Below, one piece after another: positions 1-45,728 of a DNA stretch of 64,000 bases (positions are counted from its first letter, which is position 1; every line of letters starts with the position of its first letter). Made by a program: the position numbers and the translations under genes. The DNA comes from Lingula anatina (taxonomy: Eukaryota; Animalia; Brachiopoda). Location of the stretch: NCBI GenBank assembly GCA_051362555.1, contig CM120643.1:9610001-9674000 (forward strand). Reading direction: 5' to 3'. Under the pieces are notes generated by a model. That model searched no databases and was not told the DNA's origin. It was given only the letters and a program-made list of their open reading frames with translations.

Positions 1-6
1 ATAAAA

Positions 7-343
7 TTGCCTTCAGAAAATGTAAGCACTTGTCTAACAAAATTCCGTGGCCTTGTATCTCAAGTTTGTGGTATTAACCCCAACATAAAAATTTGTATTT
101 CGGCTGTACTACCCCGCGAGGTAGACAAATTTAAACACATCACCCATCCTCTTGCTCAAAAGCATGTTATCAACTCTTTTGAATACGAAGTACAGCTTGT
201 TGAACAAAAGCCTACTTTTAGAATGTCAATCTCAGCACTCTTTATATTTTTTGGACAGTACTGAGTACTTAAAAAAACCTCAGGCTGGAAAATTATTGGC
301 ACGTGATGGGCTGCATTTGAATTTTCTAGGTATCAAAACATTA
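7..343 (+). pseudogene. SGNH/GDSL hydrolase-like domain (C-terminal part, one frameshift near 150)
   Basis: KICISAVLPR...N..L..C..LYFLD...LLARDGLHLNFLGIKTL matches SGNH block V (DxxH). It joins in frame to VICPAV (1745 onward) once the 344-1742 MITE is removed. Confidence 0.75.
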
Positions 344-1742
344 AGTGGAGACCGGGGCACGTTCGGCCCCGGGGCACGTTCGGCTTTCACTCGTATTTTC
401 CTTAATTAACACTTTTGGTCCAGCAGCGACCCCTTTATGTGTCACATGATCTATTTAGCGGATACTACAAAAATAAGGCTTCTGTGGTGCACTCCGTTCG
501 GAAGATATGATTGAAAAACTTATTTTTCACGTGTAAAATTTTTTAAAAGGTTTTTTGATTTGGGTCTACTTCAGCATTAATTAGTTGAATTACTGTCACC
601 AATGCATTATAACATAAGAGCATATAGAAAGCCAATTTTAATGAGGTATGACACCTCACTGTCGACTTGTTAATTATGTTGCTATGGTAACATACATTCG
701 GAATGCAGGCTTGGGGTAAGTTCGGCCCCTCAAGGTGGGGCACGTTCGGACCCTGGGTTGGGTACGTTCGGCCAGGGGCCGAACGTGCCCCTTGGCTTTG
801 GCTTGATCTAAAAATTATTATTTTTAAGCCAAAAAAAAGTTTGTTATATGCTAACATTTCAGCGCCATTAGTGGGGTTAAAACTTAAGCTGGTATCTTCA
901 CTTTTTAATTGTCGCCTTTTTTTCAACCACGCACGAAGCCTATAATTCAAATATTTAATACATGTACATATCATTAACTTATATTTTTCAGAGAAACACT
1001 ATGGCATCTAGCCGGAAATATTAACATTGTTTAAAGATCACTGGAGTTTTCATCTAGTTTTCTTTTAAATATTTTCTTAACGTGGCATTATTTCAAACAA
1101 ATTGTGTATGTTAAAATGTTTTTTGTGATTACAGTTGAAGTTTTGCGTTTGAACGCTTTGTTGTGATCAAATGTTAGAAAATTTTCCCGTTGGATTAAAT
1201 GTGGGGTTTCAATACTGACGTAGGTCAGTTCCTTCATGTTCTGTTATTGATATACATGAGAAGTATAAAGACCTATGCATTTAAAAAAATAGTAGCTCAA
1301 TACATGTAGTTCAAGGACATACATGTACCAAACAAACAATTTCAATTAGGCCTAAATATCTTTCTAAAACCTAACTAAATTATTTATTTCAAGTGTATCG
1401 TCACAGTTTAGTAGCTAATTTAGCACCAAAATACCTATTTTTTAAAAAATAAAAATACCTTAAAAGGTATTCATGTGAAATGGAAATAAAAGAAATCGGT
1501 AAGAGAGTATTTGAATTTGCAGGCCGAACGTGCCCCAGGCGGGGGCACGTTCGGCCACGTGTTGGAAATTTATTTCATGTTAAATTTCTTTAAAATGCAA
1601 GGTCTTCTTTTCATTTAAACAATGTATAAAAAAAGGAAATTTAGCAGTCTATCTACTCAAAACACATCATTGAGATTCGTCGTCAAGCAGCTGAACTACA
1701 ACCGATCAAAGGAAAAGGGGCCGAACGTGCCCCGGTCTCCCC
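344..1742. mobile_element. Non-autonomous TA-target DNA transposon (MITE, Tc1/mariner-pogo type)
   Basis: TIRs GGAGACCGGGGCACGTTCGGCCCC / GGGGCCGAACGTGCCCCGGTCTCC. TA at 342-343 and 1743-1744. Internal GGGGCACGTTCGGCC repeats near 720-790 and 1523-1557. Confidence 0.9.
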
Positions 1743-4700
1743 TAGTTATCTGTCCTGCAGTATGTCCAGTTAGCTCAGCCATTCCCCCTCTGTCTTCAGA
1801 GGAGGACTGGCCAGCTCTCCCCCCTCCCTCAGTGAGCCTTCACACTTCACCTCTCAAGCTAGCATCCACGCAACACAACAACACACCCAAACCTCAGCAG
1901 ACCAAGCTTGCACCCACACCAGCCAAGCCTGTGTCCTCCTCCACAGTACCACAGGTAAGGTGCAGTCCTCACACGCACAAGCAGGCACCACTCAACATTC
2001 GCAGAAAATCATATTCCAGGCAGACATCTTCTAAATACAAGCATGTGCACCCAAAACTTAGACGGCCAGTCACCATACATGACCTCCAGAGTCCTCCCAT
2101 TATCTGTAAAAACAGATTTGCCACTCTTCATGTGGAGGAGCCTGAAGATCATGAGAATGATGACTGTATCACCAATGAGCATGCAGTATCATCACAAGCA
2201 AGTCACCCCATCATACCTGCACAGAAACAGAAGTTAGTAGTGTCCCTGTTTCAGAAGTCTACTAATATCAGACTCAGAAATGCGGACACTTCTAACCAGC
2301 AAAGTGCTTACACTGCTACCAATAACAATTACAATACTCCTTCTTCCAACAACACTGCACACAGAAACACTGGCTGTGCCAGGGAAACCATAGGGATTTT
2401 CTTTCTGATGACATTTCTTTCTACTCTGTTATTTCTTGTAGGGATTGTGCTGTCTGTCTTGGAAGCACCACCATGTCTGGTGGTGAGTGTTGCACTGATC
2501 ATTGCTAAAGTAGTTAGTGCCAAAGCCTGGGTTGGTAATTACAACGTCAATTTAGTTAAAAAGAAGAAAAGAGGCAAATGCTTAGAGAGGCAGAAACGCA
2601 GGAATGGGCGGAGTAGATGTAAAAAGAGAAAAAAAAACTGCTTATATAGGAGATACTGGAGGTGTAAAGAAAGCAAATTTTGGTGCAGAGCTGTTTCAGA
2701 GTGTATGTAGCAGTGATAGAGAAGTTTTTGATGAAAAAGTATTGGGTAACATGACACTTGTGGATCATAAGATAGATATTGCTGAAAACACAGTCTGTCA
2801 TGGGAAAGTAGCAGTTGGTGATAGTGATGTTGGCATAGTGGATGATGTTAGGAGTTGTAAAACAGAGGTCTTGAACAGTAAAATAGAAGAAAAAGGACCA
2901 TTTATATTTGAAGTTGACATGTTTGAATCCAAACATTTCATTGCTCATGATGGTAAAAAACTTCCAGTTTCATTGATAGTTACATTGATTGACAATACTT
3001 GTTTCAATATTGATGGAAAGTACAGCATCTATTCAGGTAGCAAGCTTCTAAGTGTACATGATGTAGTAGAGTTTCCTAATAAGGTAGTGGTCATGATGAA
3101 AGACTTAGGTGGGGCAGGAGATAGTGATGAGGAATTGAAGCCAGCTAGTAAACAACCATGCAGTACGTGCTCACTGTCTAGTATTCCTACCATTCAGTGT
3201 CAGAATCCTTCAGTTTCGATAGGACTTGCTTACTCCAAGAAAGAATTGCTGCAGTGTTTTCAGTTGACCAAGTCACAGATACAGCATGTAGAGAGTAATG
3301 TGGTACAGCTGTGTAGGGTGCACTACAATAAACTGTATACATTTAGGGAATACTTTAAGTGTTTAATTTGTAAGAAAAGGTTTGAAAAGACACTACAAAG
3401 AAAGGTAGATCTGGAAGCATTAAAATGGTATGTGGAGAAGAGCAATATATCAGTTGAGGATGTGTCACATAGTAAGGTCTGTAAACCATGTAGCATGAAA
3501 GTATCACGGGCAAATATTAAAATGTGAAAATGAGATGTCTGACATTAAGCAAGAAGTTCTTTCTGTTTCAGATGACATAGCTGGTATTAAATCATGTTAT
3601 ACTAATTATTTAAGTAGTGATAAACCTTGTAGTAGTGAGGATGTTTTTGAACATGCTTTCTCCTTTGTAGTGTTACATTTAGCAAATGAGTTATTAAAAT
3701 GTCATACTGTATTATTAGATGACCTTATGGAATTATTACTTGGTAAGATGGGTGATATTATATCAAAATATGGAATAGACAAACATATTACGGATTTGTT
3801 GCCAAATAGTTACCAAAGTATTGTTGTTTCGAGGTTGAAAACACTCTTTAGTCATAGTCTTATTTTACGAAGTGTTCCAGATAAGCCCAGTTTAGGAACA
3901 TTATTATCACGTAGTGATGGCAATGATGTGGAATCTCTTTTGTTATTGCATAAGGGTAAGACGAAACAGCAGGAGAGTGGTAAGCAAGATAATACAGATG
4001 AGATCATCTTGGAAAGGGCAATAAATATTTTGAGACAAAGGTTAATTGCTTTCTCAAAAAGAAAAATGACCGTGTCCATTGATAGCTTTAAACCTGAAGA
4101 ATTCATAATGAACTTGGATCCTGTCATTTGGAATTTTACCTATCAATTAACAATGGGGGTAAGAGAATTTTCTTTATTTAGAAGACATATCTTTGATTGG
4201 AATGTTCCATTTATGGCAAATTTACATGATAGTAAGGTTTACAATGCAAAGCGCATTTTCAATAGATTAGGTGTAATATCAGTAGTGCATAGGTGTTTTA
4301 GTAATGAAATTGATGACCCCGTAGGTCTTATATATTCAGATGTCATTGACAAATACAGTTCTTCATCTTCTGAATTATTTGAGGTTTCTAATGCGTTTGG
4401 TTTTTCTTATTCCAAATCTCACTATACTAATTTCCAGGTGAGTATCTCAGAGGACATAATAAAAAATTTAAGGAAAGGTGAACCATTTTTAGCATCAGAT
4501 TCTTTTTGGATAGCATCTGTAGATAATGTAGATGTGGACAGTAGTAATGCTAGGGTTTTAAGTGGAGATAATAAGAGAGCATTTCACGGTACATCAGTGC
4601 AGGTTTGTTCACCACAACCAACTAATATAAAATTGTCTGCAACTGATAAATAAATTTAGACATTTTATTTTTGAAACAGGAGATGCAGTATATTCAAGGT

Positions 4701-5169
4701 ATGTAACAAATAGCACCTACTTATCATTTTTTGAAGCATTGTCTATTTGGGCAAATAGAGGAATACAAGGTAATGCAACTCCTCAGTATATTCTACATAA
4801 GGTTAAGGAATTGATTTCTTTGCCAGAAAATATTGCGTATTTGGATAACTTGTCTGATAGCTTTCATGATAACTTCTGCAAGACTCAGAATTTTTTTAAT
4901 TTTGCACATAGGTTAGATAAAATAGGACAGTCATTGTCACCAGATACCCCTGAGCTGTTAGGTGTAGTTTGTCTTTTTCACAGGCCCATTTATATTTATC
5001 GTGAAGAAGGGGGCATCTTCTCTGAGTGTGTGAGATATGCAGCAAACATTTTTAAGTCTAACCTATCAAATTAATAAGATATGAATATGAAAGGATAGCA
5101 TGTTATGACTTGATAATGGATATGGAAAATGATGAAAATCCACAGAATATTGACGATATTGCGCTATTA

Positions 5170-7225
5170 CACTGTAAAAACAGTGTTTAGCTCCTAAACA
5201 CATTTCTAAGCGCCTGTTTTGTCTCACTTTTTCCACGCGTTTAGCTCCTAACATGCTTAGCTTCTTAACACGTTTCACGCTTGTGTTTAGCAGTATGACG
5301 CGTTTGACGGCTTATAAATGTAGGGTGTATTTGTTTAACCTTTAGGTGCTAAGGGTTTCAGTCGCACACACGCGCGCACGCGCACACACACACACACACA
5401 CACGAACTCACGGTCACTTTTAACTGCTATAGTTATCTCTTTCTATAACAGGGTACCGTGAACTGTCAACATCGTTGACTTCCCACTATCATCTTTACAG
5501 CTGTACTTATTCATCCTTATGTTAGCTGACCTTGCGAGGAAGTTTATTGGAATGTATTTCTGAAAAGCAGGTTAGGAAAATTCACTAGTTCACTAAAGGC
5601 AAGAAACAACTATCAATTTTACTTTAAAACACCTTTCTCCATATTTTGATAAAATGCGATACGGTATTGATATCTATTATTTTTTTTTCCGAAAGTAACG
5701 AACAATAGAACATCAGGATCATATTGGGGTATTCATTATAATGCTTTATTTAAGCTTTCATCACATGCTGGTTATTTCGGTACCGATAGTCCGAATATTT
5801 GTACCGCTCTAGTCGCCGACTTACCCCAAGCCCATTTTGGAATTAACCACTAACTGTAATTCAAACAGCATAAGACGTGTTTTTGTTATTTATATAAAAA
5901 TGTTTTCAAAACATTATATAATGTTTTTCCAGAATGTTATAAACACGCTGATAAAACTCCACAAAATGACGTTACATGTATCATAAAATTGTGTAGAAAC
6001 GGTCTTCGAATCTTTTTACAAATTATAACGTTACTGTACATCATTTTGCATGGAGTTAAAACACCCATAACGTTACCATAATGTTCTTCTATACCATTAC
6101 CAGCATGTAACCATCTGATAACGTCGTGAAATCGTTATTTGTTATTGGATTATTACTTAAAGGTACATACAGTATGAATCGAGCATCGGTGGAGCGTGGG
6201 TTGCCAGTAACACATATAAACCACCTCTACTAGATTCTTATACGACTCAAATAAAGTCGACATGCCAAGGGACAAACTGAATAAATCATTCGATCAGCCA
6301 TAAAAGAGCTTTAGACTGCTCTTTTAATTTTTGGTCAGAAATTTAACCTACTTATGTGACCTACTTTTCTGCCCCATGTATATACAGGATAGTAAGCTAA
6401 CAGAAAAATCCATTCAAATAACATTTTTCGGCGAATATTAATCAATGCCTTCTGGCAATTCCCTTAATTATACTTTTTGAAACTATATACTGGTATTTGG
6501 TTGGTTTTTGAGCAAAAAATTGACTTTGTATGCATCTTTAATAGGCCTATTTTAAATAAGCACGCGTTACTGCAAGGAAGGACACCAAGCGTTCGAGCAG
6601 ATTGCTCCACGCCTTCAACAGCTCCACACGTTTACAAGGGGGGGAAGTGTTAAGCCAAATTGTTGAGCCTTGTAATAAACTTATGGGACCGGTGAAACAA
6701 ATCACATAGCTAAAAGTGTGACACTTCTAAGAATGTTAAACATTTTTATTTCTTCTGAAAGAAGCTTGAAAAGCTAAACTTGTTGTTCAGCTACCCTCTA
6801 CCAGGGCGACAGATGGATTTTTCACAGATATGTCTCTAGATAAATAGATAGTCAATTTGGTCTGATGTCACCTCAGCAAAAAATGTCCCCAAGAACTGCG
6901 GCCTTGATAGAGGGTATTGTTCAGCAGCTCCACGCGTTTAGGAATTCCACACCTATAGCAGCTCCATATGTTTAGCAGCCTCACGCGCTTAGCAGGGGAA
7001 GTGCTTAGACAATGTGCTTAGCTTGTGATAGACTTATTATAGATCCATATACCGGTGAAGCTAAGCACATAGCTAAACGTGTAACACTGCCAACGTGTCT
7101 AGCATTTTCTTCTGTGAAACGCTTGAAAAGCTATACGTGCTTAGCTTTTACACATATTTCTAAATGCGTATAGGTGCTTAACGTATGTTGTATGTATTTA
7201 AATGCTAAGCACTGTTTTTACAGTG
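5170..7225. mobile_element. Non-autonomous CACTG-terminated element (EnSpm/CMC-like), 2-bp TA TSD
   Basis: CACTGTAAAAACAGTG...CACTGTTTTTACAGTG, with TA at 5168-5169 and 7226-7227 and subterminal CACGCGTTTAG-like repeats. Removal joins DDIALL to PSLLTVFG in frame. Confidence 0.85.
5365..5403. repeat. (CA)n/(CG)n microsatellite
   Basis: cacacacgcgcgcacgcgcacacacacacacacacacac. Confidence 0.9.
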
Positions 7226-9407
7226 TACCTTCCTTGTTAACAGTGTTTGGGATTAACCCCTTACATAGTATTTCCCATGAAGAATATAAACCATTGGTAG
7301 GAAAAAAGGCATCAAAATGGAAGATATAGACCCCACATTACTTTCCACTGTATTTGACGCGGATTCCTTGGCTTTTACTTCTCTTTACAACCCTAGCCAA
7401 CCTTCCCCTCACACTCAACTTTCCTTGGCAGACTTCCAGGTAACTGATGAAGAACAGCACCAAGCTACAGCATTAGGCAACAAACTTTTCAATTTCAGTT
7501 TAGGGCACCATTGTTTTGCTGAAAAAAGTATTGGGTTAGATGAAATTGAGAATTATCCCAATATTCTAAAAGGATATTTTTCAGTGCATGAGCCAGTATT
7601 TAAGGAAAAATCTCAAATTACATGTATATATTTTAGTATAACTGATAAAACGTCTGATTCACCAGATACAATGAAAGTGATTTTCGGGTAGTTATATAAT
7701 GTTATGGGTGTTAGCAAAAAGATAAAGAATTTAGTGGTTGTAGGTGATGCCAAATTATATGATATTTTAGTTAAGCTTAAGTTAGAATTTTCCACAGAAT
7801 TAAAATGGTTACTCCCATATATAGGAGATTGGCACACCCTCAAGAATTATCAAGGTGTATTAATGAAGTGATATGGAGAGGCAGGACTAAGGCATTTTAT
7901 TGAGCTGTTCCATAAGGGTAAGACTGCCTCTGCTGTGTTAGGTGCATTGAATTTCACAAAAACACATGAGTTTTTACTACAGGTTTGGGAGGCAATGTAT
8001 AGGCATGAGTTAGCTGTGTTTTTAAAGTATAGGTCGACAGTGTTGTCTGAAAGAGATAGGTGTGAGTTTTCATTGAGGGATATCTGTGATAGGATGAATG
8101 GGGTAGATTCAGAGTTCCAGGCATTTAATGAATTGACTGATATGAATAATGACATAAAGGAAGAATTTAACAATTTCACATCTAAAATGATAGCTAAGGA
8201 TGAGACTTGGGCCTTTTGGCACAATTTTATTCATAGAGATTGTTTTGCATATGTAGCATACTATTTAGCCATACGTTCAGGCAATTGGCAATTAAGGAAC
8301 TTTTCGATAAAACATGTTACAAAGCTTTTTCACAGTGTCCAGTCTAATTTTTATTACCGGCTACTTCCCCACCATTTAGCTGACCTCAAAACTTTCCCCA
8401 CATCTGTTCTTAAACATTTTGAATCTGGCGGATTTGTCATAAATCTAACTGAAAGGCCATATAGCAGTATAGCATTAGATGAGGCACACGAGACTTGTAT
8501 AAACAGGGACATTAAGAAGGCTATTAATTATCCATCAGAAGATGTTTTTTCTAGGTTAGTTTACTATTTACCATATAGGGCTAGGGTATTGAAAAACTTT
8601 GAGTATTTGCTACCCAGTAGTAAGAATTATGAGTTACCTTTCAAGCAAAATTCAGTTAAGTCACAATTTGAGAATAACATTAGGTATTACATTCAGTTTA
8701 TTGAATCTAGTCAGTGTTCACTTTTTAATGTACATTTAGACATGTTAGATCAAGAAAATGGTATTTCACTTATTCATATCTGCACACAAGAAAATGCTGA
8801 TGAAAATCAGCGGCGGGATTTACTTAACTTATTAGAATTAGGTAGTGAAGAATTAAATAAGTTTACTAAACACAAAATAATAAAAGTAGATGACAGCAGG
8901 GCTTATAGTAGGAAAAGAAAATTATTGCATACTTTTGGCACTAATCTAGAAACTAAGTCAAACAAAAAACGCCAACTTAGTTATCAGAAACTAGTGACAG
9001 ATAGTTTACGTAAGCAATTGAATTGGACAAAGAAAGGAAAATCACTCCCTGAAAATGTGCAGCAAATTGTACCTTACCCCTTAGCTATATGTGGGGAGGA
9101 CGGGGCCCCGTATAAAGGAAATAAGTCTTCAGCCAGACACTTCTTCCAAAACATGTACCCACAAGCATTCAGTGTAGGATTATCAGAAGATATAGTCTTT
9201 ACAAGTATAGTTTTGGATGCCATGTTCCAAATTAATACCCCCCCCCTTTACCCTTACAAAAAATTTCAAACAGTATGCACAGTTATTTTACAATAGGCAT
9301 GTATTTCCCGTTTCTCAAGAAGGAAGTCAAAGAAGTTCATGTAGTATTTGATAAGCCAGGTGGCGTAAATAATTTTGATCCTAAGCAAGTAGAAAGAGAT
9401 AGGAGAG

Positions 9408-10232
9408 TGTTACTGCCAGAGCAGTGTTTTATAGATAAATCTTATTTCTTTACTTCGGACGCGCTACTCACTTGTTTGTCGCATCGGTGTTGAATAACAA
9501 TTGTTTTTAGCGCGCTTATGATAATGATGGGATAGAATGTGATTCCATGTGGAATGAGATCGGCTGATATTAAATGCTGAGACAGCCGTAATTACAAGTG
9601 TTTTTGTAACAGGAATCTGGCCCATAAGGTTAGCAATTAATTTTAAGTTATGAAAGTTCATTTAAAGATAATTGCGAGAAGATAAAATTAGTTTTCCATT
9701 GTAAACTGCAACTTTCAGTAGCGTTAGAAATGCCGGTCTGATGTACAATGCACAGTACATGTAACACAATCACTGTGCCTTTCAGTATTGGAGTAAAGAA
9801 AGTTCAGTAAAGTGTAGTGTATTGTTTAGAAACGAGAATGTAGCTGTACTAGTTGCGAGTTAAATATTGTTTGTTTTATGTTCGTAATCAATGTTATTTT
9901 AAAAAGCGTATTTTTTCATTGTGTTAGTTGCGCCAGATGAGATTTACTACACAATCATTTAGAACCCAGTCGCTTGCATTACACTAGAATAGCCCAAAGT
10001 CGGTAAGAGTTACTTATATTTTGAAGATAAAGATAGGATAACATGCAACTGTTAAGTAAAGATGTTATTTAAGCGACTTAATAGCATCATATAAAAGAAC
10101 TAGGGCAAGAATATGAGATGATTTACTTATTTTATTTCAATTATTTTTTCAGTTGACGGTTTAAGGTTTAATAAATCAGTAAAAACGACGCAAAGCTGTT
10201 GTTGTTGTGTGTGAGTATTGCAAGTGGCTACA
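9408..10232 (+). repeat. 5' LTR
   Basis: TG...CA direct repeat of 16321-17145; AATAAA near 10170. Confidence 0.97.
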
Positions 10233-10807
10233 GTCAACGACTTGGATTTGAGATAGCCCATACCAATAGTCCGCAACTAAAGCCCTGAGACGGCCCGTAC
10301 CGAACAACCGAACCAAGAAGACAGAATTTATGACCTACTTACAACCTGTGGTAACTCTAGATATCTGAGATGCCTGGAGCCAGTCAACAGCCATTATTTA
10401 GATGACCCGGCCCAGTCAAGTACTAGCAGTTACTGGTGGGACTGTAATTAAGGAAATTGAGCTAAGATCCAATCCGCAGCTTGCAATAAAGCTGAAATTG
10501 AGACTTTCTCGAGTATATGTTGACACTTGATTTCATATCCACAGATAACTATAAATACTAGTAGACCTCAGTGTAGCTGAATATATTATTGGCTATCTAA
10601 ATATACATATGATTATTAATTTATTTGTTTGTTAAGATTAAGATACTCGGCAATTTTACATGTTTGCTGTTGATGTTCAAATGTTTTAGCTAGCTTATTA
10701 CTTATAGAGAAACTGTCTACATTTTGAAATTTACTTGTCTTGTGTAGTGTAGATAAGTTTATTTGAATTCAAATAAGTTACGCTGCCCATACTGCTTGAC
10801 ATTAAAA

Positions 10808-11964
10808 ATGGATGCAGCTACCATTACCAAGACTCCCAGCACTAGGACAGTTCCTTCTCAGACACCAACTGACCAAGAAGTAACATTCAGAAACATATCG
10901 CCTAAAGATGATTTGAGAAGAAGACTAATTGAGGAATTAGATCCAGATGACTCCGTCAGTCAAGCCGGCTCAAACGTATCTTTTAAGGAGCGACAGTTAG
11001 AAGAAGAAGCTAGACAGGTTGCTTTGAAGGAAAGGCTGAAGTACCTTACAGCACAGCAAGAAATAGAAGAGCAACAGATACGTTTAGAGCAGAGAAGAAA
11101 GCGGCTCTTGTTAGAATCAGAACTGAATGAAAGCAAGAAAAGGGAAGAAATCTTTAGGAAAGCATTGGGAGGTGAAGATACTACTAAGAAGGAGTCAGAC
11201 AGCAGCTATAGCCATGATGTTGTGAGGGCCTTAGAGAAGTTGAGCCTGAGTAGATTACCGATTCCAGAGCCACCTGTATTTGAGGGAAATTATCTAACAT
11301 ATGTAACATGGCGACTAGCATTCAAGACTCTAATAGAAAGCAGAAATATCCCACCCAGTGAGAGGCTGTACTACCTAAAGAGGTACCTCAGAGGAGAAGC
11401 TAAAGAGACAGTGGATCATTTGTTTTACTTAGATTCAGAAGAGGCTTACATTGAAGCCCTTGAGATACTTGAAGATAGATATGGTGATAAATTTTTGATA
11501 GCAGAGGCTTTCAGAGACAAATTAGAAAAGTGGCCCAAGATTAACAGCAGAGACAGTAAGGGACTTAGAAAACTATCAGATTTTCTCAGGCAGTGTTTAG
11601 CAGCAACAGATCATGTAGGAGAGTTGAAGATCCTGGACGACTGTCGGGAAAATAGGAAGTTACTTCAGAATGGATCACACGAAGATGGGCCCGAATTGTC
11701 GAAGAATCACAAGGTTTCCCAAGCTTCAAGAGGTTTGTAGAGTTTGTAAAAAAGGAATCCGACATTGTAAATAACCCTGTTATGAGACCAGCTGAAACTG
11801 CATTTAGCAAGAAAACCCCCACTTCCACCAGCCTTATGACGAAGACGAGCGATCAAGCTATACCAACGCCTCCTGTCACGAAAAATGCCTGTACATTCTG
11901 TGAGAAAATAGGACACGACATCAGAGAATGCTGAAACTTCGAAAGAAAAACGCCACAAGAAAGA
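10808..11964 (+). pseudogene. BEL/Pao gag, disrupted by a frameshift near 11667 and an in-frame TGA at 11932
   Basis: LPIPEPPVFEGN..Y..W..AFKTLIE..ERLYYLKRYL.GEA is typical BEL gag. It continues in the pol frame as EWITRRW..FVEFV..CTFC..H..REC*. Confidence 0.9.
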
Positions 11965-14900
11965 ATGGAGTTTATAAAGAAAAGAGGTCTTTGCCTAAGC
12001 TGCCTTAGAAACGGTCACTTAGCCAAGGAGTGTAAAAGGAAGGAACAATGCAGTAGATGTGGTCGTAAACACCCTGCCATACTACATGGGGACTACGAAG
12101 CCCTACACCCAGAAGATCAACATGTAAGAACATTGTCAAGTACTTGCCAAGAGGGAGCTATCAGTTCAATGACAATTCCAGTCTATGTATCTGTAGGAAA
12201 TTCCGGGAATGAAATCCTGACATATGCTCTTCTAGATAGTCAAAGTGATGTTACATTCATTAGCGACGAGTTAGCAGCCAAGCTGAATGCAGAAAGCGTA
12301 CCTACAAGTATCAGGATTTCAACAGTCAACTCCAGCTATGTAGTCAAAACTTCAAAGGTTCCAGGATTGACTGTAAGAGGTTTTAACTTAACAGAAACTA
12401 TAGCACTACCAACCTGTTATACAAGAGAAAACATACCATTCAACAAGAAACATGTACCTAGACCATCGGATGCAAGAAGATGGAATCATCTGCAAAATAT
12501 ACAGAGCCAAATTGCACCGCTCCAGAATTGCGACGCAGGTTTACTTATAGGTTACAACTGCTCTCGTGCATTGGTACCCCTTAGTGTCAGAGTAGGAGCA
12601 AACGAGGAACCCTATGGAATACAGACACCCCTGGGATGGAGCGTCGTGGGAAGGACCAGACGAGAAGACACAGATGAATATCACCTCAGTCACAGAGTGA
12701 TGAGGAAAGAAATACAAAGGGATTTGAGAGTCGATGATAGAGGAGAAGTGACTTTTGTCCACAGAACAAAGGTTAAAGAGACAGTAACTGAGCCAGAGAT
12801 AATTCAGTTACTGGAAGCGGACTTCAGGGATGAGCACAAGTCAGAAGATTCCTTGTCCCAGGATGACTTGAAGTTCTTAAAGAAGATGAAAGACACAATC
12901 TATCAAGACCAAGACAATTTCTATACCATGCCTCTACCGTTTAGAACTGATGCCCCACAGTTGCCTGACAACATGCCCATGGCCATGAGAAGACTTGAGC
13001 ATCTTAGAAAGAAATTTGCAGACAAAGAATTTGCCGCCGAATATAAGAAGTTCATGGACACAATGATAGAAAGCGGAGAAGCTGAACCTGTTCCAGATAA
13101 AGATGTAGCTGGAGGACACAGATGGGTCGTGCCACACCATGGAGTTTACCATAAACGTAAAGGAAAGCTCAGGGTAGTATTTGACTGCGCAGCGAGATAT
13201 AAGAACATTAACCTGAATGAGAACCTCATCTCAGGTCCAGACCTCACCAACAGTCTGATAGGATGTCTCCTGAGATTCAGAGAGGGATCAGTAGCCGTTG
13301 TAGGAGACATAGAACGAATGTTTTATCGGTTCAAGGTAGACCCACGAGATCGTAACTACTTCCAGTTCCTGTGGTGGGATGGAGACCTAGAAGGCACACC
13401 TAAGCTATTTAGGATGACAGTTCACCTGTTTGGAGCTGCCAGTTCCCCTGCGTGTGCTAACTTTGCTTTGAAACAACTGGTTGAAGACCATGGAGAAGAA
13501 TTTGATGAGAAGGTTTGCTGGGTAGCTGGTAATTGCCTTTACGTAGACGACTTGTTATTAAGCATTGATTCTGCTGAGGAGGCAAAGCAGCTTATTGAAG
13601 GCGTACGTCAGCTATTTCAGAAAGCAAATATAAGACTTCACAAGTTTATTAGCAACAACCAAGAAGTTTTGGAGAGTATTCCCGTATCAGAAAGAGGGAC
13701 ACAGAGCACCACTGTTGATTTGCCTTTACCTGCCACAGAGAGAGTATTGGGAATTCAGTGGGATACCCATAGCGACCAGCTCAGCTTTCAGTTAACACTG
13801 AATGAAAGACCGATGACTAGAAGAGGAATTCTTTCGACTGTTGCCTCTGTCTATGATCCCCTGGGTTGTATAGCACCATTTATCCTATTAGGCAAACAGA
13901 TACTGCAGGAGATGTGTGCGTCCAAAGCCAGCTGGGATGATCCAATATCAGAAGAACTCAGACCAAGATGGGAGAAATGGCTGCGTGAATTGCCAAAGCT
14001 AGCGGAAATTCATTTATCAAGATGCTATATTCCCCAAGACTTTGGAAAAATTGTCACAGCAGAGATACACCACTTTTCGGACGCAAGTACCAGAGGATAT
14101 GGCCAATGCTCCTACCTTCGAGTAGTGAATAACAAAAACGAGTGCCACTGCTGTATCATGTTGGGCAAATCTCGAGTCGCGCCACTCAAGATTACTACAA
14201 TTCCGAGATTAGAGCTTACAGCAGCCACAATGTCGACCAAGATGAGTACTCTGCTGAAGTCTGAAATAACCTATGAAAACCTCAAGGAGTATTTCTGGAC
14301 AGACTCCAAGATAGTGCTAGGATATTTGAAGAACAATGTAAGAAGATTTCATGTCTTCGTAGCCAACAGGATTCAGACGATTCAAAACGCTTCTGACCCT
14401 AGTCAGTGGCACTACGTGCCAACCAATGATAACCCGGCCGACCATGCTTCTAGAGGGCTGTATCCAGAGGAACTGATGGCATCAAATTGGTTTAAAGGCC
14501 CAGAATTCCTGAGAAACCCAGTTCTAAGCATGGTAGAGGAAAATCCAGAGGTTGATCCAAATGATCCAGAGTTGAAGAAAGCAACAGTAAATGCAGTGGA
14601 GACTACAGAAAAGGCAGGAACATTTACACAGAAGCTCAATAGATTTTCATCCTGGACCAATGCCATTACAGCAGTGACAACCATTAGAAAACGTCTACTC
14701 AAAATGGGTTCATCATTGTCTGCTGACCGACGAAAGGCAGAACTTGCTATTCTTAAGCTGCTTCAGGCTGAACGGTTCCAAGACGAAATTAGGCAAATCA
14801 AAGATGGATCGCTTCCGAAGAAAAACCCTCTCTCCAAGCTGGATCCTTATATTGACGAAGAAGGAACCCTGCGAGTAGGAGGACGTCTCACACGATCCTC

Positions 14901-16119
14901 ACTGTCTTACGAAGTACAACACCCTGTAATTTTGCCAAAGTCAGGACATATTGTAGACCTAATTGTGCGTCATTGCCATCAGAAGGTAGCCCACCAGGGA
15001 AGAGGTTTTACTCTGAATGAGATACGTTGCCAAGGGTACTATATCATTGGTATAGGCAAGACGGTTGCTTCTGCAATACACAGATGCGTAACCTGTAGAA
15101 AAAACAGGGGCAAAAGTGAAGAACAGAGGATGTCAGATTTACCAAAGGATCGAACAGAACCTTCACCCCCATTCAGTTACTGTGGCATTGATTGCTTTGG
15201 CCCCTTCCCTGTGAAAGAAGGTCGCCGTGAAGTTAAGCGATATGGATTGATAGTGACCTGCATGGCGTCGAGAGCAGTACACATCGAATGCCTGGATGAC
15301 ATGACGACAGATAGTTTCATAAATGCTTTAAGATGTGTGATAGCTTTGAGGGGTCCTATACGGCAAATCAGATGTGATCAGGGATCAAATTTTATCGGAG
15401 CAAGAGTGCTTTTAGATAAATCACTAGAAGAGGTCAAAAATGACGAGTTGAAGAAATTTATGATTGAGAACAAGTGTGATTTTGTGTTTAACAGCCCACA
15501 CTCAAGCCATATGGGAGGTGTGTGGGAGCGACACATTAGAACCATCAGAAGTATACTAGCAGCAATGTTGGAGCAACATGGTTCTCGTATTGACACAACC
15601 ACCTTAAGAACCTTCCTATATGAAGTCATGGCCATTATTAACTGTCGACCTTTGACCGTACAGAACCTACATGATCCACTTGGTCTAGAATCACTTACTG
15701 CGAACCATTTGTTGACAATGAAGCCAAAGGTAATATTGCCATTGGGAGAGTTTGGACCTGAGCACCTGTATGCAAGGCAAAGATGGCGCCAAGTACAAGT
15801 GTTAGCGGATAATTTCTGGAGTCGCTGGAGGAAGGAATACCTTCTTAATTTGCAACAACGAACAAAGTGGAATGAGAAACGAAGAAACCTAGGAGTGGGA
15901 GACATTGTTTTGCTCAAAGATGAAGGATTATACAGAGGAGACTGGCGACTTGCCAGAGTAACAGAGGCGAACATAGATGAGGATGGATTAGTTCGCAAAG
16001 TGAAGATTCTTTTGGGGAATCGTGATCTTTCTGCCAAAGGCATCCCCTCCTCTACGTCTACTATATTAGAACGTCCAATCCATAAACTAGTTTTGTTGTT
16101 AGAAGGGGATAAGTTGTAA
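11965..16119 (+). CDS. BEL/Pao polyprotein: zinc knuckles, aspartic protease, RT, RNase H, integrase
   Basis: CLSCLRNGHLAKEC; ALLDSQS; LRVVFDC..GPDL..DIERMF..YVDD; HHFSDAS..PRLEL..WTDS; HH-CC, IDCFGP..CDQGSNF..GGVWER. Confidence 0.97.
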   Translation: MEFIKKRGLCLSCLRNGHLAKECKRKEQCSRCGRKHPAILHGDYEALHPEDQHVRTLSSTCQEGAISSMTIPVYVSVGNSGNEILTYALLDSQSDVTFISDELAAKLNAESVPTSIRISTVNSSYVVKTSKVPGLTVRGFNLTETIALPTCYTRENIPFNKKHVPRPSDARRWNHLQNIQSQIAPLQNCDAGLLIGYNCSRALVPLSVRVGANEEPYGIQTPLGWSVVGRTRREDTDEYHLSHRVMRKEIQRDLRVDDRGEVTFVHRTKVKETVTEPEIIQLLEADFRDEHKSEDSLSQDDLKFLKKMKDTIYQDQDNFYTMPLPFRTDAPQLPDNMPMAMRRLEHLRKKFADKEFAAEYKKFMDTMIESGEAEPVPDKDVAGGHRWVVPHHGVYHKRKGKLRVVFDCAARYKNINLNENLISGPDLTNSLIGCLLRFREGSVAVVGDIERMFYRFKVDPRDRNYFQFLWWDGDLEGTPKLFRMTVHLFGAASSPACANFALKQLVEDHGEEFDEKVCWVAGNCLYVDDLLLSIDSAEEAKQLIEGVRQLFQKANIRLHKFISNNQEVLESIPVSERGTQSTTVDLPLPATERVLGIQWDTHSDQLSFQLTLNERPMTRRGILSTVASVYDPLGCIAPFILLGKQILQEMCASKASWDDPISEELRPRWEKWLRELPKLAEIHLSRCYIPQDFGKIVTAEIHHFSDASTRGYGQCSYLRVVNNKNECHCCIMLGKSRVAPLKITTIPRLELTAATMSTKMSTLLKSEITYENLKEYFWTDSKIVLGYLKNNVRRFHVFVANRIQTIQNASDPSQWHYVPTNDNPADHASRGLYPEELMASNWFKGPEFLRNPVLSMVEENPEVDPNDPELKKATVNAVETTEKAGTFTQKLNRFSSWTNAITAVTTIRKRLLKMGSSLSADRRKAELAILKLLQAERFQDEIRQIKDGSLPKKNPLSKLDPYIDEEGTLRVGGRLTRSSLSYEVQHPVILPKSGHIVDLIVRHCHQKVAHQGRGFTLNEIRCQGYYIIGIGKTVASAIHRCVTCRKNRGKSEEQRMSDLPKDRTEPSPPFSYCGIDCFGPFPVKEGRREVKRYGLIVTCMASRAVHIECLDDMTTDSFINALRCVIALRGPIRQIRCDQGSNFIGARVLLDKSLEEVKNDELKKFMIENKCDFVFNSPHSSHMGGVWERHIRTIRSILAAMLEQHGSRIDTTTLRTFLYEVMAIINCRPLTVQNLHDPLGLESLTANHLLTMKPKVILPLGEFGPEHLYARQRWRQVQVLADNFWSRWRKEYLLNLQQRTKWNEKRRNLGVGDIVLLKDEGLYRGDWRLARVTEANIDEDGLVRKVKILLGNRDLSAKGIPSSTSTILERPIHKLVLLLEGDKL

Positions 16120-16320
16120 GTTTTCCATAGAATAATGTTCGAGTATGGTTTTGTGATACATGATGTTCAAAGAACTGTTAAGTGAAGATCTAATGGTATT
16201 TGGGAGTACCAAAGCTATTGTATAGTGAGTTAATAGTTACAGTTTACCAGTTACATTGTTTCATGTGTAAGTTAGTTTTGTTTGTTTGTATAGAAAATCA
16301 ATTAGATTTTGGCTGGGGAG

Positions 16321-17145
16321 TGTTACTGCCAGAGCAGTGTTTTATAGATAAATCTTATTTCTTTACTTCGGACGCGCTACTCACTTGTTTGTCGCATCGG
16401 TGTTGAATAACAATTGTTTTTAGCGCGCTTATGATAATGATGGGATAGAATGTGATTCCATGTGGAATGAGATCGGCTGATATTAAATGCTGAGACAGCC
16501 GTAATTACAAGTGTTTTTGTAACAGGAATCTGGCCCATAAGGTTAGCAATTAATTTTAAGTTATGAAAGTTCATTTAAAGATAATTGCGAGAAGATAAAA
16601 TTAGTTTTCCATTGTAAACTGCAACTTTCAGTAGCGTTAGAAATGCCGGTCTGATGTACAATGCACAGTACATGTAACACAATCACTGTGCCTTTCAGTA
16701 TTGGAGTAAAGAAAGTTCAGTAAAGTGTAGTGTATTGTTTAGAAACGAGAATGTAGCTGTACTAGTTGCGAGTTAAATATTGTTTGTTTTATGTTCGTAA
16801 TCAATGTTATTTTAAAAAGCGTATTTTTTCATTGTGTTAGTTGCGCCAGATGAGATTTACTACACAATCATTTAGAACCCAGTCGCTTGCATTACACTAG
16901 AATAGCCCAAAGTCGGTAAGAGTTACTTATATTTTGAAGATAAAGATAGGATAACATGCAACTGTTAAGTAAAGATGTTATTTAAGCGACTTAATAGCAT
17001 CATATAAAAGAACTAGGGCAAGAATATGAGATGATTTACTTATTTTATTTCAATTATTTTTTCAGTTGACGGTTTAAGGTTTAATAAATCAGTAAAAACG
17101 ACGCAAAGCTGTTGTTGTTGTGTGTGAGTATTGCAAGTGGCTACA
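16321..17145 (+). repeat. 3' LTR
   Basis: Direct repeat of 9408-10232, same length. Confidence 0.97.
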
Positions 17146-17456
17146 GAGAGATAGGGGTTCAGTAGCAATAAGCATTGATAAAATTACACATACATCTTCT
17201 CTTCCTAATGTCTGGCATGATTTCTTAAAGAATAGGTCCAACAAAAGTAAATTAGTAAGTTATTTAGGTGCAACTTTATTGCAGATTCATAGTGAACAGG
17301 AACACTTTAATGAAAATGCAAAACTATTTGTAAGTGGCTGTTTTGATGGCACGTGTAAGGTAGCTGTTCGTGGAAATATTAGGGAAGATCCTTCATTCAG
17401 TTCCAATCATGAAGAGGGTTACAGTTTAGATATTATTATCCTTTCACCAGATACTG

Positions 17457-18189
17457 GCCCCCGTTTCACAAAAAAACTTAAGTCGGTTTCCCTGACTTAT
17501 GGCTTGGTTACCAACGTAATTAAGTCGTTACGTCACTAAGTCCCGTTTCACAAAGAATCTAAAAGGTCGCTTACGTCGTTTTTTTCTTAGCCGTAAGTCG
17601 ACAATGTCAAGCCTCCTCGGGAGGAGACTTAAGTCGGCAAGCTCAACTAAAACTCGGTAAATGAGAGCATAAACAACAAAAATTTGGAAAGAACATACCT
17701 CCTTCAAGATATTGTGTTATAATATCCTTGAATAGCACTGACATTTATGGAATATTAAAATAAAAAATAAAATTCCACTTTACCCAGCCGATCGCGTGTT
17801 TGTTTATGTTTTTGACCGCTAGACGTCCCTCAGTAGTGTTCCACGACAAGCTAATGTTTAACTGTTACTTTGAAGTTGTATTGAAGTTAAACTTATCAAT
17901 AAAGTTCAAAAACAAACTTTGTTTGTGTTTTGGCTGACTTTTATTGTTGATAAACGATCGTTCTCGGCTGAAAGAGGCCATGAAACGTCATGTCTTGTGA
18001 AACTTTTGCAATTTACACCTCCTTTTCTTGAAGAGTTTCTCGTGCGCGTCGACTACGGTAAGCACGCCAAGCTAAGACGTTAGATTCTTTGTGAAACACT
18101 CCAAGTCGACTTCAGCTAAGTCGACCTAGCTAGGCCACCCAGCTCGAGTAAGACGTCTACGGATTTAAGATTCTTTGTGAAACGGGGGC
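17457..18189 (+). mobile_element. Harbinger MITE (family H1, sharing ends with the 44549-50471 element)
   Basis: TIR GCCCCCGTTTCACAAA / TTTGTGAAACGGGGGC; TSD CTG. Removal restores the SPDT-D motif of the Academ XPG domain. Confidence 0.95.
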
Positions 18190-20262
18190 CTGATGACTTA
18201 GAAATAGGACTAGGCCTGTTTGATAGTAGGGAGTACAGGAATAAGCATGTTTTTATTAAAGTAGGGCTCAAACCTTATGAGGATATTTATGTGGATGTAA
18301 AAAAATTGCATCTTTGTCTGGTTTCTGATCCTGATTTAGGTACTTTAGACAGGGAAAATGTTGGTAAAATTATGCAGGTTTTATTTATTTCCTCAGGTTG
18401 CGATTTTGTTTCATTCTTCAGAGGATTTGGTAAGAAAAGCTTCTATACCACTTTCTATAGGTATGCAGACTTCATATCAGGAAGTAGGGCTGTGGGGTCT
18501 CTTGACCAAGTAGGCATAGGAGATTTTAAAAATGGACTTCTTGCTTTTTGCCGACTTTTAGGATTTTAAAAAATGTTGTAATGCATTTTTGCATACTAAC
18601 CCAGATTGCAACCCAGTCAGTTATTTCAGAAGTTTATATGATAATAGTAAGACTTATATAGACAATGTACATTGCTGGTTAGCTAATATCAGGTCTGCAT
18701 TGCTGGATACAGAGCCTCTAGAGCATGTTTTGCCACAAAATGACACTGGCTTAGGTCTTGTTATATTAGTCAGATGTGGAAACAGTTAGGTCAAAACCAG
18801 ATAGAATATTTGGATGTTTTGGAATGGGGGTATGAAGTTATAGATGGGACACTTAGGTATAAGTTTGTTACTGATCAGGTAAATGAGGTAGTACAAGGTA
18901 ATTATAATTTTTTAATGAAAGGCTGTAGTTGTAGGTATGCAGACAGTGCATGTGGGAATAGGTGTGGGTGTAGGCATAAAAAAGGGTATGTGGTCTTAGT
19001 TGTAAATGTGGAGGGGAATGTCTTAATAGTGTAGAGAATTTAAACAGTGAGGAAGTATTGATAGAAAATAGTGACAATGAGAATAGTGATAGTGATGCTG
19101 AAGACCTTTTTTAATTAGCAAATTTGTAGAGAAAATAATATTTAGATGATAATTATATATTATTAGATAGATTTAAAACAAACTATTTCCAACAGATTCT
19201 TCAAGATATTAAAAGTAAATGTTTATCATTTCAGTTTTTAAAATGGCTTTGGAGGCCAAGTTGAACATGCAGTGGACTTCGTGTGCTGATCAAAGATGTG
19301 GAGAAAGAGGAACAACATAAATAATAATTGAATTGCCAAATAGACATGAACTGGATTTTTTGGCTACAGACTGATAACACACAGAAATAAGGTCGCGCGA
19401 CAAGGTTATTTTCAGTTGCACCCTGGATTACGCACGCTTGCTCCGCAAGGTGTCGCCTGTGGAGGGGGGGGGGGCGGCAAAGCCCATATGGTTACTGTGG
19501 CGAAGGTGACAGGTACTTCCAAACATTTTTTCATAACTGTCTTTATTCCTCATTCTATTCACAAATTTGATATTTACGGCAATGGAAAATGTGGCACTGA
19601 CAAAAGTGGGTCTTGGTGCGTTGACAGGCCGCACAGGTGTCCCCAATTAACCGCCGCCAGAGAAAAGACCCCAAGCATTAAACAACACGACCTGTAGATA
19701 TTGGAAATTTGGCAAAAGTTAAGCAACTGAGGCTTTGGAGATTTGGGCAGAAATCGAGAGGAATATCCAGTGACATGCCAAACCTCTAAGTTCAAGTCTT
19801 GGCCCCTGTCATCAGTAACGCACCCCTTAGTCAAGAATCTGAACAAATCAATGTTGGGCAGGTATGCTCTATTTTCTACAGGCGTTTTGTGATTTTATCA
19901 ACTTGATTGGCAAGTGCCAGACCTTTTGTTCCCCGGTACTAGTAGCAAACTTTATCAGATAACAATCTGACACTATGTTGCACTAACAGCGCTGTAAACC
20001 CAGTTATCAATGCTGTCATCTTTACCAGTATCTTTACCGGTATTATGCCAGTGGTACGTTTGCTACATTTGAGTAAGGCAATATGCTTTGATGCTTATAT
20101 TTATTTGTAATACGTTAGCATCAACCTGTTAATAAAAACTTGGAAACTTTCAATGTTATTACACAATAACAGTATAATGGTGGGAGATGTTATGATTAAA
20201 TGCTTAGAAGAAATAATAAGAACAGATTATGTGAAATATAAAATGAATTTATTTTATTTGGG

Positions 20263-33607: not shown

Positions 33608-35316
33608 TCATCCTCCTTTGTTCCCCCCGCACGCCTTTTGCTTCGTTATCGTTTTAGGCACCACTTGGATTGCCACAACTTTAGGTTTACTAACTGGTTT
33701 GGGTTCGACTTTAACAGTTGTAACTTTCTTTTTAGGCTTCGGCTTCGCAACGACAACTGACACCACTTTTGGTTTACTAACTGGTTTGCGTTCCACTTCA
33801 ACGGCTACAATTTTCGGTTTAGGGATGGGTTTCCGTCTTGGGGGAGGTTTGCGGATTGAGAAGCTAGATGGTCGTGTAACTTTTTGAACTCGCCGCTTTA
33901 AAAGGGGAGAGGGTCGTGGTCTTGGCCTTGGTCTTCTTCTTCTCGATCGACTGTCCCTGACATTATCACGTCGCTGATGCCCTATATATCTTGGCCTTGG
34001 CCGATACCTTGGTCTATATCTTCTACGACCGATTACATACCTATAACGTATTCGGCGGGATCGTTTCCGCTGAAGTTTCTTCGGTGTTCTTTTAACTATC
34101 TTGTAGAGATTCGTACGGCCAAAAAAACCTCCACAAGGCAGCTGCGATTTTTGGCAACTAACGCCACATGCGTATTTATTCACTTCCCTAAGTTGACGGA
34201 GATGAACGTTGTTTTTCAAACAGCGGCATATGTTGATCCCCCTTCAATTTAAAAGTGAAATCATCATTAATGGCGTTCTTTTTTTTTTTTTTTTTCACAT
34301 GAAATACCAGTATGATTCACATTTGGACTTTGGTTGATCAAAGTTTTTTAAAGGATAACGGCGGTTTTTATGACAGTTTAACTTTTGTCGCTTTGAAGTT
34401 TGCACAGTGAATCTATCGAACGAAATATTAAAGATACTAATCAATGAGCAAGAATTGATGAAAGGACACAGGCATGCAAACATGCTTGTGAATTACACAA
34501 CGCCAAAAACTGGCAACAGAAATAATGTTTGACACACTAGCTGTATTAAGTCCTCATTTTAGATTTTGGGTAATTCACATTCCAATAACATTTTTTGTAG
34601 CTTACCTCGAATGGCTCAGTGCTACATATTTAGTTCCTTGCTTTTTGCAGAAGTCTGTGCAGTCTCCAACTTCGAGTTTCTCCCCCCTCTTTTCATGACT
34701 GTTGAAGAGGGCCGGGCTGGGTCTAGCATAGCAGCCCTTGTATTGTGCGCCCTCCGCGCCGGCATATGAAATGTAGTCCCCTGTTCAAGAAAAATGTTAT
34801 TTTAATTTCATTTAAACGTGGTTGATAATGCATCATAATTTGATATATCGTTAGAAGTAAACGGAAAGGTTTGCAGGGTTTTCGCCAGAAATAAGAAAAA
34901 TTAAAGAAATATTTTGTACTGTTTTGCAGACTTCTACTAGACCTACTTACAGATTTCTATTTTTAAAATTCCCAAACCTCAAATATCTGTAAATTTAATC
35001 AACATTTTTACCAAGTGGTTATTACAAGCTTTTTTATCTTACCAAAACTTATTGAATAAAATCAAAATTAAAATTGAACAGACATGCCGAAAACGAATTT
35101 ATGAAATCTTCTTTAATTCGCTGATTTGAAAAAAAAAACCATATTCTACTGACAAGGGGTGAAACGAAAATAGCAATATGTAATGATTGATAGCACTAAA
35201 CCTTTGTGTTGTACTTTTGAGGCGTTTTTAAAATACATACATGCACTGGTAGGCGTGAGAAGGAAAGTCAAGAAGCAACACAAGAAGACAGCTGCAATTT
35301 GTGAGAAGGCCATCAT
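33608..35316 (-). CDS. Secreted WSC-domain protein with Arg/Tyr/Pro-rich and Lys/Val/Pro-repeat tail, copy A (294 aa; exons 35316-35241, 34780-34606, 34241-33608)
   Basis: GT-AG introns with compatible phases. Signal peptide MMAFSQIAAVFLCCFLTFLLTPTSA. WSC pattern YKGCY..DCTDFC...YVAL..CRC..C..SC....PCGG....LY. Exon structure is conserved in copy B. Confidence 0.88.
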
Positions 35317-40200: not shown

Positions 40201-41679
40201 CTCGTCGTCTGGGTTCATTAACGGTTTTTTCTTAGGTGTAAACTTCAGTCTTCCTTTTGTGATAGACGCATATAAGAGAGAGACAGAGAAATGAAGTGAA
40301 ACAGGATATACCTTAAGAGCAGGACAGGAAAGAGAATTTGCCCAAGGCAAGAATTAAACAACAAATACTCATAAAATTAAAATAAAAACGTTTTTATTTA
40401 CAAACCAATTTACGTTTTAGTTTTTCTTTGTTTTTATTGTTATTAATACGAACATAAAATGCAACTCATACCGTCATTACCAGCGTATATGCTCACGTAT
40501 ATTGTTCACCGGTTCATTACTTTTATAGTCACTACTTGTATATTCTAAGATTCGGTACCTGACACATGGTCACCAATCGTTGTTACTGGCACACCAAAAG
40601 CGCGTGACGCTTCAGTCAACGTGTACGTGCCTGCTTGCACAGACAAAACAGCTGCATCTAATTGTTCTAAGTTATATTTCCGTGGCATTCTGAAAACTGA
40701 TTTGACATTTTTGGTTTAATTAATGTTGTTTTAAAATGTAAACACACATAATTTGGGCTTTTATTTTAGATAAACAAACAGAACTAGGCCATCCTTTGCT
40801 AAAGTTGGATATTCTAAAGGATTTCTTTTTAAATTAAACTTCAATATCAGTTACGTACGTAACCCGTCTTGTAACAGTACTATTGTAAGGGTCTCTAGCG
40901 GCAATTCACCAAACTACTACATGTGTACGTATGTTGTGACACACATTATTGACTCAAACAAGAAAACAATCCTAACTACAATTGATCGGGACGATTTTAT
41001 TTACACTCACAAGAGAGATGAATTGGAGACAAAAACAAAGGACATCATTTGGATACTTAAGATGCCTTTATTCAAGGTTTGTGTTTATCACTAAGTTTGA
41101 TGCAATGTGTTTACAAGCCGTGTACATTTTACCTGTAATACTACGTCGGGTAATACGGAGGTGATAAACATCCAGGGTAGCCCTATAGAGAATTACGGCT
41201 GGGATAATATGTGGAAAACATCAATCAGCCAGTAACGTTTCTTACAAAGGACACGCACCTGTTAGAATTTTAAAAATCTAGAATATATAAAGCAGATGAA
41301 TGTGGTATTTTTCTACTTCATTTGAACTTACAAATGGCGACACCGGCGACAACAAATAATGATAAATTAAATTTACTCATACGAAGGATGCGCAAATAAT
41401 AGGACGTCGACAAGAGCATAAAAGCACGGAAATTTATGTAAGTAAACATTATTTCTGTTCAACTAACTTCTTCTACAACATGTGTAAGGTCGTTATCAAC
41501 GCTTTTGTATTATAAACAAAAGTTTAAATGTTGCGTTCGATACTTTGTATCAGACGCTACAACTTACTTGACTACGCAGTATGTTTACGCAGAGCATGCC
41601 GGGAAAAATAGCGAAAAAAAGCACGTACTTCCGGTTTGCGTCGATTTCTTGAAGGCGTCGATTTCTTGAAGGGCGAGTC
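37253..41679 (-). mobile_element. Apparently autonomous pogo-superfamily (Fot-like, DD35D) DNA transposon
   Basis: 24-bp TIRs GACTYGCCCTTCAAGAAATCGACG; TA TSD; contains a spliced transposase gene. Confidence 0.93.
38163..40688 (-). CDS. pogo/Fot-like transposase: psq-HTH, CENP-B HTH, DDE_1, charged coiled coil, PHD finger (exons ~40688-40559, ~40254-40004, ~39810-38163)
   Basis: MPRKYNLEQL..ASRAFGVPVTTI; DEEALI..WGFPLT..SDGWW..RHPELSLRK; IYNVDET..QDNLAAH..LQPLD (35 aa between the 2nd and 3rd Asp); C-terminal CTVC..IRCVVC..HLSC..FLCHNC. Confidence 0.92.

Positions 41680-45688: not shown

Positions 45689-45728
<40 letters not shown>

Follow-up and report, generated by a model that had tools for sequence, protein, structure and literature searches.

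How could a DNA transposon produce a nuclear transposase and an esterase from one gene and still keep the two apart? This question is raised by a 64,000-nucleotide stretch of the Lingula anatina contig CM120643.1 (here called the window), which carries on its plus strand, from before its first base to about position 19,110, a decayed Academ-type DNA transposon. Between the remains of an SGNH-type esterase and the zinc fingers that open the transposase lies a 73-residue segment ending in LGG, which the initial annotation had read as a ubiquitin-like (Ubl) domain at which a long polyprotein would be cut. We find a cassette of esterase, Ubl domain, GG and transposase to be real in the intact proteins of a sister family and probably present in this copy as well.

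The sister family (P0016 and relatives) carries most of the evidence. In a tree of 21 transposase cores, which omitted fragments and broken loci, the window and P0016 form a sister pair with support of 98/98 and 40% identity. The best match of the window's core, P0001 (about 36-38% identity; 36% over 645 residues), belongs to a cluster of 14 proteins, nine of which were checked: three of these (2888, 2990 and 3053 residues) combine the SGNH esterase, LGG, core and CXC finger in a single chain, and six carry an identical 72-residue domain ending in ALGGG, with LGG present in all six that cover the site. The order of parts in the sister proteins is SGNH esterase, linker, the 72-residue domain with its LGG end, zinc fingers and transposase. 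The proposed polyprotein is therefore intact in three full-length sister proteins, while in the Lingula copy it is not one open frame. The sister esterase reaches Pfam Lipase_GDSL_2 at E 1.3e-6, below the curated cut-off, and contains the blocks GAS, SGA, GANN and DGLH, which we take to be those of the SGNH family; the sister DUF6589 domain lies at or above its Pfam cut-off. Shared architecture extends to the window itself: the sister SGNH domain matches positions 13-135 and 179-364 (tblastn, E 2e-7), with only DGLH of the four SGNH/GDSL blocks inside the window, the linkers have the motifs E-D-x(0,1)-W-P-x-L and N-R-F-x-x-L in common, and the zinc-finger regions align with a score of 74 (0/1000 shuffles). 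An N-terminal membrane part had also been claimed; the hydrophobic segment is indeed there, followed by a Lys/Arg/Cys-rich stretch to about 2707, but the sister family does not share it. In P0016, at residues about 540-1070 of the protein, the linker between esterase and Ubl domain contains a tandem repeat of ~51 residues that varies in copy number in the sister family.

Several predictions point to a ubiquitin-like fold for the sister's 72-residue domain. Pfam returns the ubiquitin family at E 0.0039, below the curated cut-off, six of the eight matches among PDB sequences are Ubl4A or SUMO, each of them weak (E 0.9-1.6), and the ESM Atlas places the domain with ubiquitin-family clusters at 0.87-0.89. 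Its AlphaFold model has a predicted local distance difference test score (pLDDT) of 71 and the order strand-strand-helix-strand-strand; Foldseek matches that model to SUMO, ubiquitin, ISG15 and UBL domains with a probability of about 1.0 (best E 0.012), and Ubl domains head the VIA list (top Z 6.1, root-mean-square deviation 4.1, 75 residues aligned). These tests depend partly on one another, and as modelled the sister domain is ubiquitin-like.

The GG also lies where relatives begin their transposase. From GG to the first Cys pair there are 13 residues in the sister family and 15 in the window, and from the initiating Met to the same Cys pair there are 16-20 residues in eight of ten other families, with one family each at 32 and 6 (leaving out P0029, a duplicate of P0003); the leader of P0014 is 132 residues long. 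Cleavage after GG would consequently leave a transposase with the same starting point as its relatives. The other full-length relatives checked, of 1,716-1,820 residues, have neither an OTU insert nor the N-terminal extension, and the L014 family, a complete 6.4-kb element with inverted ends of about 450 bp and 4-bp duplications at five of seven distinct insertions, has no room for such an extension, since its left end is only about 550 bases ahead of its ATG. In 11,541 residues of seven related proteins GG occurs 20 times and LGG not once. Two further arrangements were seen at transposase starts. At L044, about 7470-7660 (also L024, L035 and L039), the transposase exon is without a Met and an upstream ATG stands directly before GTAAGT, which suggests that this family takes its Met from a tiny upstream exon; at L002 (6640-8000), L003 and L023 a tandem-repeat array lies immediately upstream of the transposase start.

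We propose that this lineage made one long protein, consisting of esterase, linker, a likely ubiquitin-like domain with LGG, zinc fingers and transposase, which a host deubiquitinase or SUMO-type protease would cut after GG. The released transposase would then share its start with the Met-initiated relatives and would separate from the esterase-bearing piece. Judged from sequence comparison, we hold this to be somewhat the likelier course of events. The cutter would be an enzyme of the host, because the intact sister is without an OTU domain and the OTU of this copy could not cut. We know of no cut-and-paste transposase that is a polyprotein product. If the proposal is true, a single gene would yield two products in fixed ratio, a nuclear transposase and a detached esterase piece, and host deubiquitinases or SUMO proteases would govern the release of the transposase.

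The alternative that survives best, which we nonetheless consider unlikely, is that the Ubl domain is an integral module captured from the host, used uncut for docking or proteasome targeting, and that its LGG is left over from the gene that was captured. Cleavage is so far a deduction, the tails of both domains are without the Arg residues of the ubiquitin tail LRLRGG, and many of the top structural matches are integral UBL domains, such as those of Rad23, Dsk2 and Ubl4A, all of which would suit an uncut module. Integral UBL domains usually have no terminal GG, however, and here LGG is the only three-residue run that the two lineages have in common in domains of 14% identity, at the very position where relatives begin their transposase.

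A different role was given in the initial annotation to an internal OTU-like module at 4650-5130, which was thought to bind the Ubl domain or to have cut it ancestrally. The module itself is borne out. Read with one frameshift as X, positions 4682-5127 align to the OTU domain of P0012 (Owenia, CAH1775834.1, a partial protein) with a score of 41 against -33 +/- 11 and 0/3000 shuffles as good, although a direct Pfam match of the window module to OTU (PF02338) was not obtained. In P0012 the domain is recognised by Pfam at E 4e-10, above the cut-off, just after an HGT[ST] motif and with its GDGxC and HYD motifs intact (the whole of P0012 had 0 matches in the PDB); the insert in the window sits at the same site. 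The distance from HGT[ST] to the next conserved motif is 448 residues in P0012 and 367 in the window's read-through, compared with 172-241 in nine relatives without OTU, among them the sister with 179, in which Pfam finds no OTU; the spacing motif was not found in P0014. As an enzyme, on the other hand, the module of this copy would be dead: the alignment places Ser (TCA, 4724-4726) at the catalytic Cys, with STYL replacing GDGR, and Cys (TGT, 5101-5103) at the catalytic His. The domain of this copy is also broken before its last strand. Each of the two catalytic replacements needs at least 2 base changes, for which the upper bound is about 3e-4 per codon at 1-4% decay. The estimated decay thus cannot account for the loss of both residues, and the OTU had probably lost its activity while the element was still mobile. 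It was also not required for the cassette, given that the intact sister has Ubl-GG without it, and the dead domain most likely either is a relic or serves to bind ubiquitin.

That the element processed itself, its own OTU having once cut the Ubl domain, or binding it still, with the OTU later lost from the sister and inactivated in this copy, therefore strikes us as improbable, more so than the uncut module. The window does hold both a Ubl-type segment and an OTU, and an OTU with intact motifs stands at the same site in the Owenia relative from the same 6-row clade (95/100). The Owenia protein, however, is incomplete and need not have carried a Ubl domain, the sister has retained Ubl-GG without an OTU, and in the window GG was kept even though both catalytic residues of the OTU were lost.

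The 73-residue segment of the window is far less telling by itself than its sister counterpart. The annotated peptide of ~72 residues does exist before the zinc finger, in frame +3, within the open reading frame (ORF) 2586-3527; G-P-F-I-F begins at 2895, which puts its P at 2898 and not at 2897, and LGG occupies 3105-3113, with no change listed at these codons in runs X5 and X7. The beta-grasp ubiquitin fold claimed for it is predicted for the sister domain and is not borne out for the window segment: Pfam gives 0 families at E<=10, phmmer on the PDB gives two weak unrelated matches only, the single-sequence AlphaFold model is of low confidence (pLDDT 49), and a structure search with that model reached Z<=4.0 with mostly PAS/LOV-type matches and no Ubl. 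The top ESM Atlas match, at 0.76, is the N-terminal domain of TDP-43, which we take to be ubiquitin-like and treat as a lead only. No relatives of the 313-residue ORF 2586-3524 were found among 1.84 billion representatives. Against the sister domain the segment has 10 identities in 69 positions; without LGG the similarity is not significant, with 223-1720 of 3000 shuffles as good and a rank of 12-32 among 1714 windows. Neither segment found a match in 54 loci by tblastn, a negative of little weight given that the two did not find each other either; their MAFFT alignment is gappy, and a profile built from it found no Ubl in the PDB. The window alone would not sustain a ubiquitin-like claim. From position, length and LGG, and not from a sequence score, the segment is probably a strongly diverged counterpart of the sister domain, and its divergence arose while the transposon was still active, since decay is near 1%. 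Run X7 has a 7-base loss at 2919-2925 within the segment, a sign of continuing neutral decay.

The least likely account, by which the window segment is a spacer, unrelated or unfolded, that has its LGG in common with the sister by chance, draws on these blank or weak direct tests and is hard to square with the near-equal length (73 and 72 residues), the same neighbours on both sides, the common esterase and linker motifs and the absence of LGG from the seven other relatives.

The proposal of cleavage after GG has further points to contend with. The window segment fails every direct fold test and has no significant match to the sister Ubl domain, and the sister model itself has no Foldseek match at E<=0.001 and no VIA match at Z>=8. 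The sister proteins are gene calls and may be one locus in several assemblies. Conservation of GG, which had been suggested as a check, is found as LGG in the window and in 6 of 6 sister proteins covering the site; only these two lineages carry the cassette, so the conservation rests on n=2. A search for further long relatives found none among proteins of 3855-5000 residues and covered 2370-3855 residues only via the sister cluster, so that further families with the cassette may exist. Finally, the tails MKDLGG and TAALGG have none of ubiquitin's Arg residues.

An important aspect of these results is how the element compares with known systems. Its membership in the AcademX lineage of the Academ superfamily is likely, judged by its DUF6589-like core and on the assumption that DUF6589 marks Academ elements. 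Acidic and helix-turn-helix-like motifs are visible in the C-terminal part of the alignment of relatives, with no PDB or Pfam nuclease match of weight, and we presume them to be nuclease-like (XPG/FEN1-like). Like AcademX elements, which according to the passages on them in PMC10045372 make 3-4-bp duplications and encode a nuclease, the transposon has a single long ORF, N-terminal zinc fingers, a DUF6589-like core, a putatively nuclease-like C-terminal part and a CXC finger; no helicase gene was seen, and the inverted ends (~450 bp) and 4-bp duplications given above are those of the related but more distant L014. It differs in that two sister lineages carry an N-terminal extension of ~1,100-1,300 residues comprising SGNH esterase and Ubl-LGG, and two lineages an OTU insert. 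Our literature search met no description of a Ubl-GG cassette, OTU or esterase in Academ, with the main Academ papers, Repbase and the supplements of PMC10294476 outside its range; the Academ passages of PMC5751038, PMC10799480, PMC5753468 and PMC10294476 mention none of these domains.

The closest parallel for the proposed processing comes from pestiviruses. In cytopathic bovine viral diarrhoea virus (BVDV), as described in the relevant passages of PMC8310069, host hydrolases cut behind a ubiquitin or ubiquitin-like insert and give NS3 its authentic start, so that there, too, an internal ubiquitin-type domain lies in a polyprotein ahead of a downstream enzyme. The BVDV insert is near-intact host ubiquitin acquired via RNA recombination, with cleavage shown (PMC8310069), whereas the domain discussed here is strongly diverged, long-standing and part of a DNA transposon, and would be cut by analogy; for DNA transposons the papers covered describe no such device. 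Among DNA transposons, proteins with a ubiquitin- or SUMO-type protease domain (OTU or Ulp1) are described for Ginger1, Helitron/Helentron and Mutator elements in passages of PMC2836005 and PMC6431247. In these the protease domain is C-terminal or in RepHel, while here it lies inside the transposase and is catalytically dead in this copy; the Ubl-GG lies upstream, and the same passages name no such module. SGNH/GDSL esterases, proposed to act at membranes, are reported from LINE ORF1, rotifer long terminal repeat (LTR) elements, Terminons and a platyfish Helitron (PMC3905857, PMC6431247, PMC5408684 and PMC4021074). Unlike in those SGNH-bearing elements, the esterase here is joined in frame to a cut-and-paste transposase via a Ubl-GG junction, so that an esterase of the kind found in retroelements is now also seen in an Academ-type transposon. 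The older suggestion, made in a passage of PMC2836005, that ubiquitin pathways act in transposition is thereby given a test, for which an intact sister family is available.

The remains of the element in the window are listed in the table below. By tblastn, 14 relatives, named ones coming from Mytilus, Antedon and Owenia, tile the transposon from 3147 to 19105; ORF 3499-4650 had 0 matches among proteins of 673-2000 residues, and genome contigs and viral contigs scanned for relatives gave none. The core reaches Pfam DUF6589 at E 1.6e-4, below the curated cut-off, and the Cys-rich CXC finger (GCSC..C...CGC, 18921-18990) has weak TCR/CXC matches in relatives.

Table. Features of the Academ-type transposon and of the elements nested in it (window coordinates)
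Feature	Position	Strand	Remarks
SGNH/GDSL esterase domain, C-terminal half	1..343	+	frameshift near 148; DGLH motif; start outside window
Nested non-coding element, terminal inverted repeats	345..1742		TAA/TAG flanks; depth several times that of host transposon
Low-complexity Pro/Ser/Thr linker	1746..2392	+	two short motifs common with sister family
Hydrophobic, membrane-like segment	2393..2530	+	hydropathy 2.67 vs 1.16 in sister; absent from sister
73-residue segment ending in LGG	2895..3113	+	positional counterpart of sister 72-residue ubiquitin-like domain
Zinc-finger region opening transposase	3114..3518	+	first CxxC at 3159; frameshift near 3519
Transposase N-terminal part	3520..4653	+	tblastn to P0001 E 1e-29; HGTS motif 4585-4596; in-frame stop 4651
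OTU-like domain without catalytic residues	4682..5127	+	frameshift near 5060
Nested high-copy non-coding element, TA duplication	5170..7225		inverted repeats
Transposase core, DUF6589-like	7228..9406	+	GD..Y, GDWH, LDEAHE motifs; stops at 7689 and 7869
Nested LTR retrotransposon	9408..17145	+	GAGAG duplication
Transposon C-terminal part	17147..19110	+	acidic motifs (EE.., SPDT, SGCDF..GKK), CXC finger, acidic tail
Further inverted-repeat element	17456-18190		splits C-terminal part

Decay of the transposon is slight. Over positions 1-9269, along the chosen reading path, there are three in-frame stops and about six frameshifts, and the three stops in 5,790 sites give an estimate of 1.2% (95% range 0.25-3.6%). 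Contig depth in runs X1, X5 and X7 is even across the transposon (about 50-105) and rises far above this on the inserts, from which it follows that the transposon is single-copy; only 2 and 7 contigs aligned to it at 82% likeness, which gives no basis for a consensus from further copies. The annotated region is broken near 2630, 3519, 4651-4654 and 5060. One base fewer at 3519 in run X7 joins the zinc-finger frame to that of the transposase, and five extra bases behind 4654 in runs X5 and X7 join the OTU frame to the upstream transposase frame, with the stop at 4651 persisting. In run X5 two bases are missing at 2629, but this does not bring the linker into frame with the Ubl segment, and so the linker-to-Ubl junction rests on the sister family. 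Of the RNA data, two reads in X11 and none in X14 fell on 1744-5167, with only ~6% of each run sampled, a share too small to bear on expression or splicing.

Four later insertions, those of the table, interrupt the transposon. The first separates esterase from linker and leaves the codon phase equal on both sides. The second, at 5170-7225, is polymorphic, being absent from a run X7 contig in which 5167 is followed immediately by 7226. The LTR retrotransposon, presumably of BEL/Pao type by its motifs, is young: its LTRs are about 97% alike and it has a pol frame of 1,394 residues, with the gag frame broken near 11,700-11,934.

Elsewhere in the window, the minus-strand ORFs 33608-34243 and 59142-59864 are similar to each other, rich in Arg, Lys and Pro and composed of short repeats, and we take them to resemble sperm nuclear basic proteins. 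More DNA transposon remnants lie at 38163-40353 (minus strand), 41861-42542, 44725-47502 and 63603-63998; judging by their motifs these are presumably pogo/Tigger-like with a C-terminal PHD-like finger, Tc1-like and Harbinger-like.

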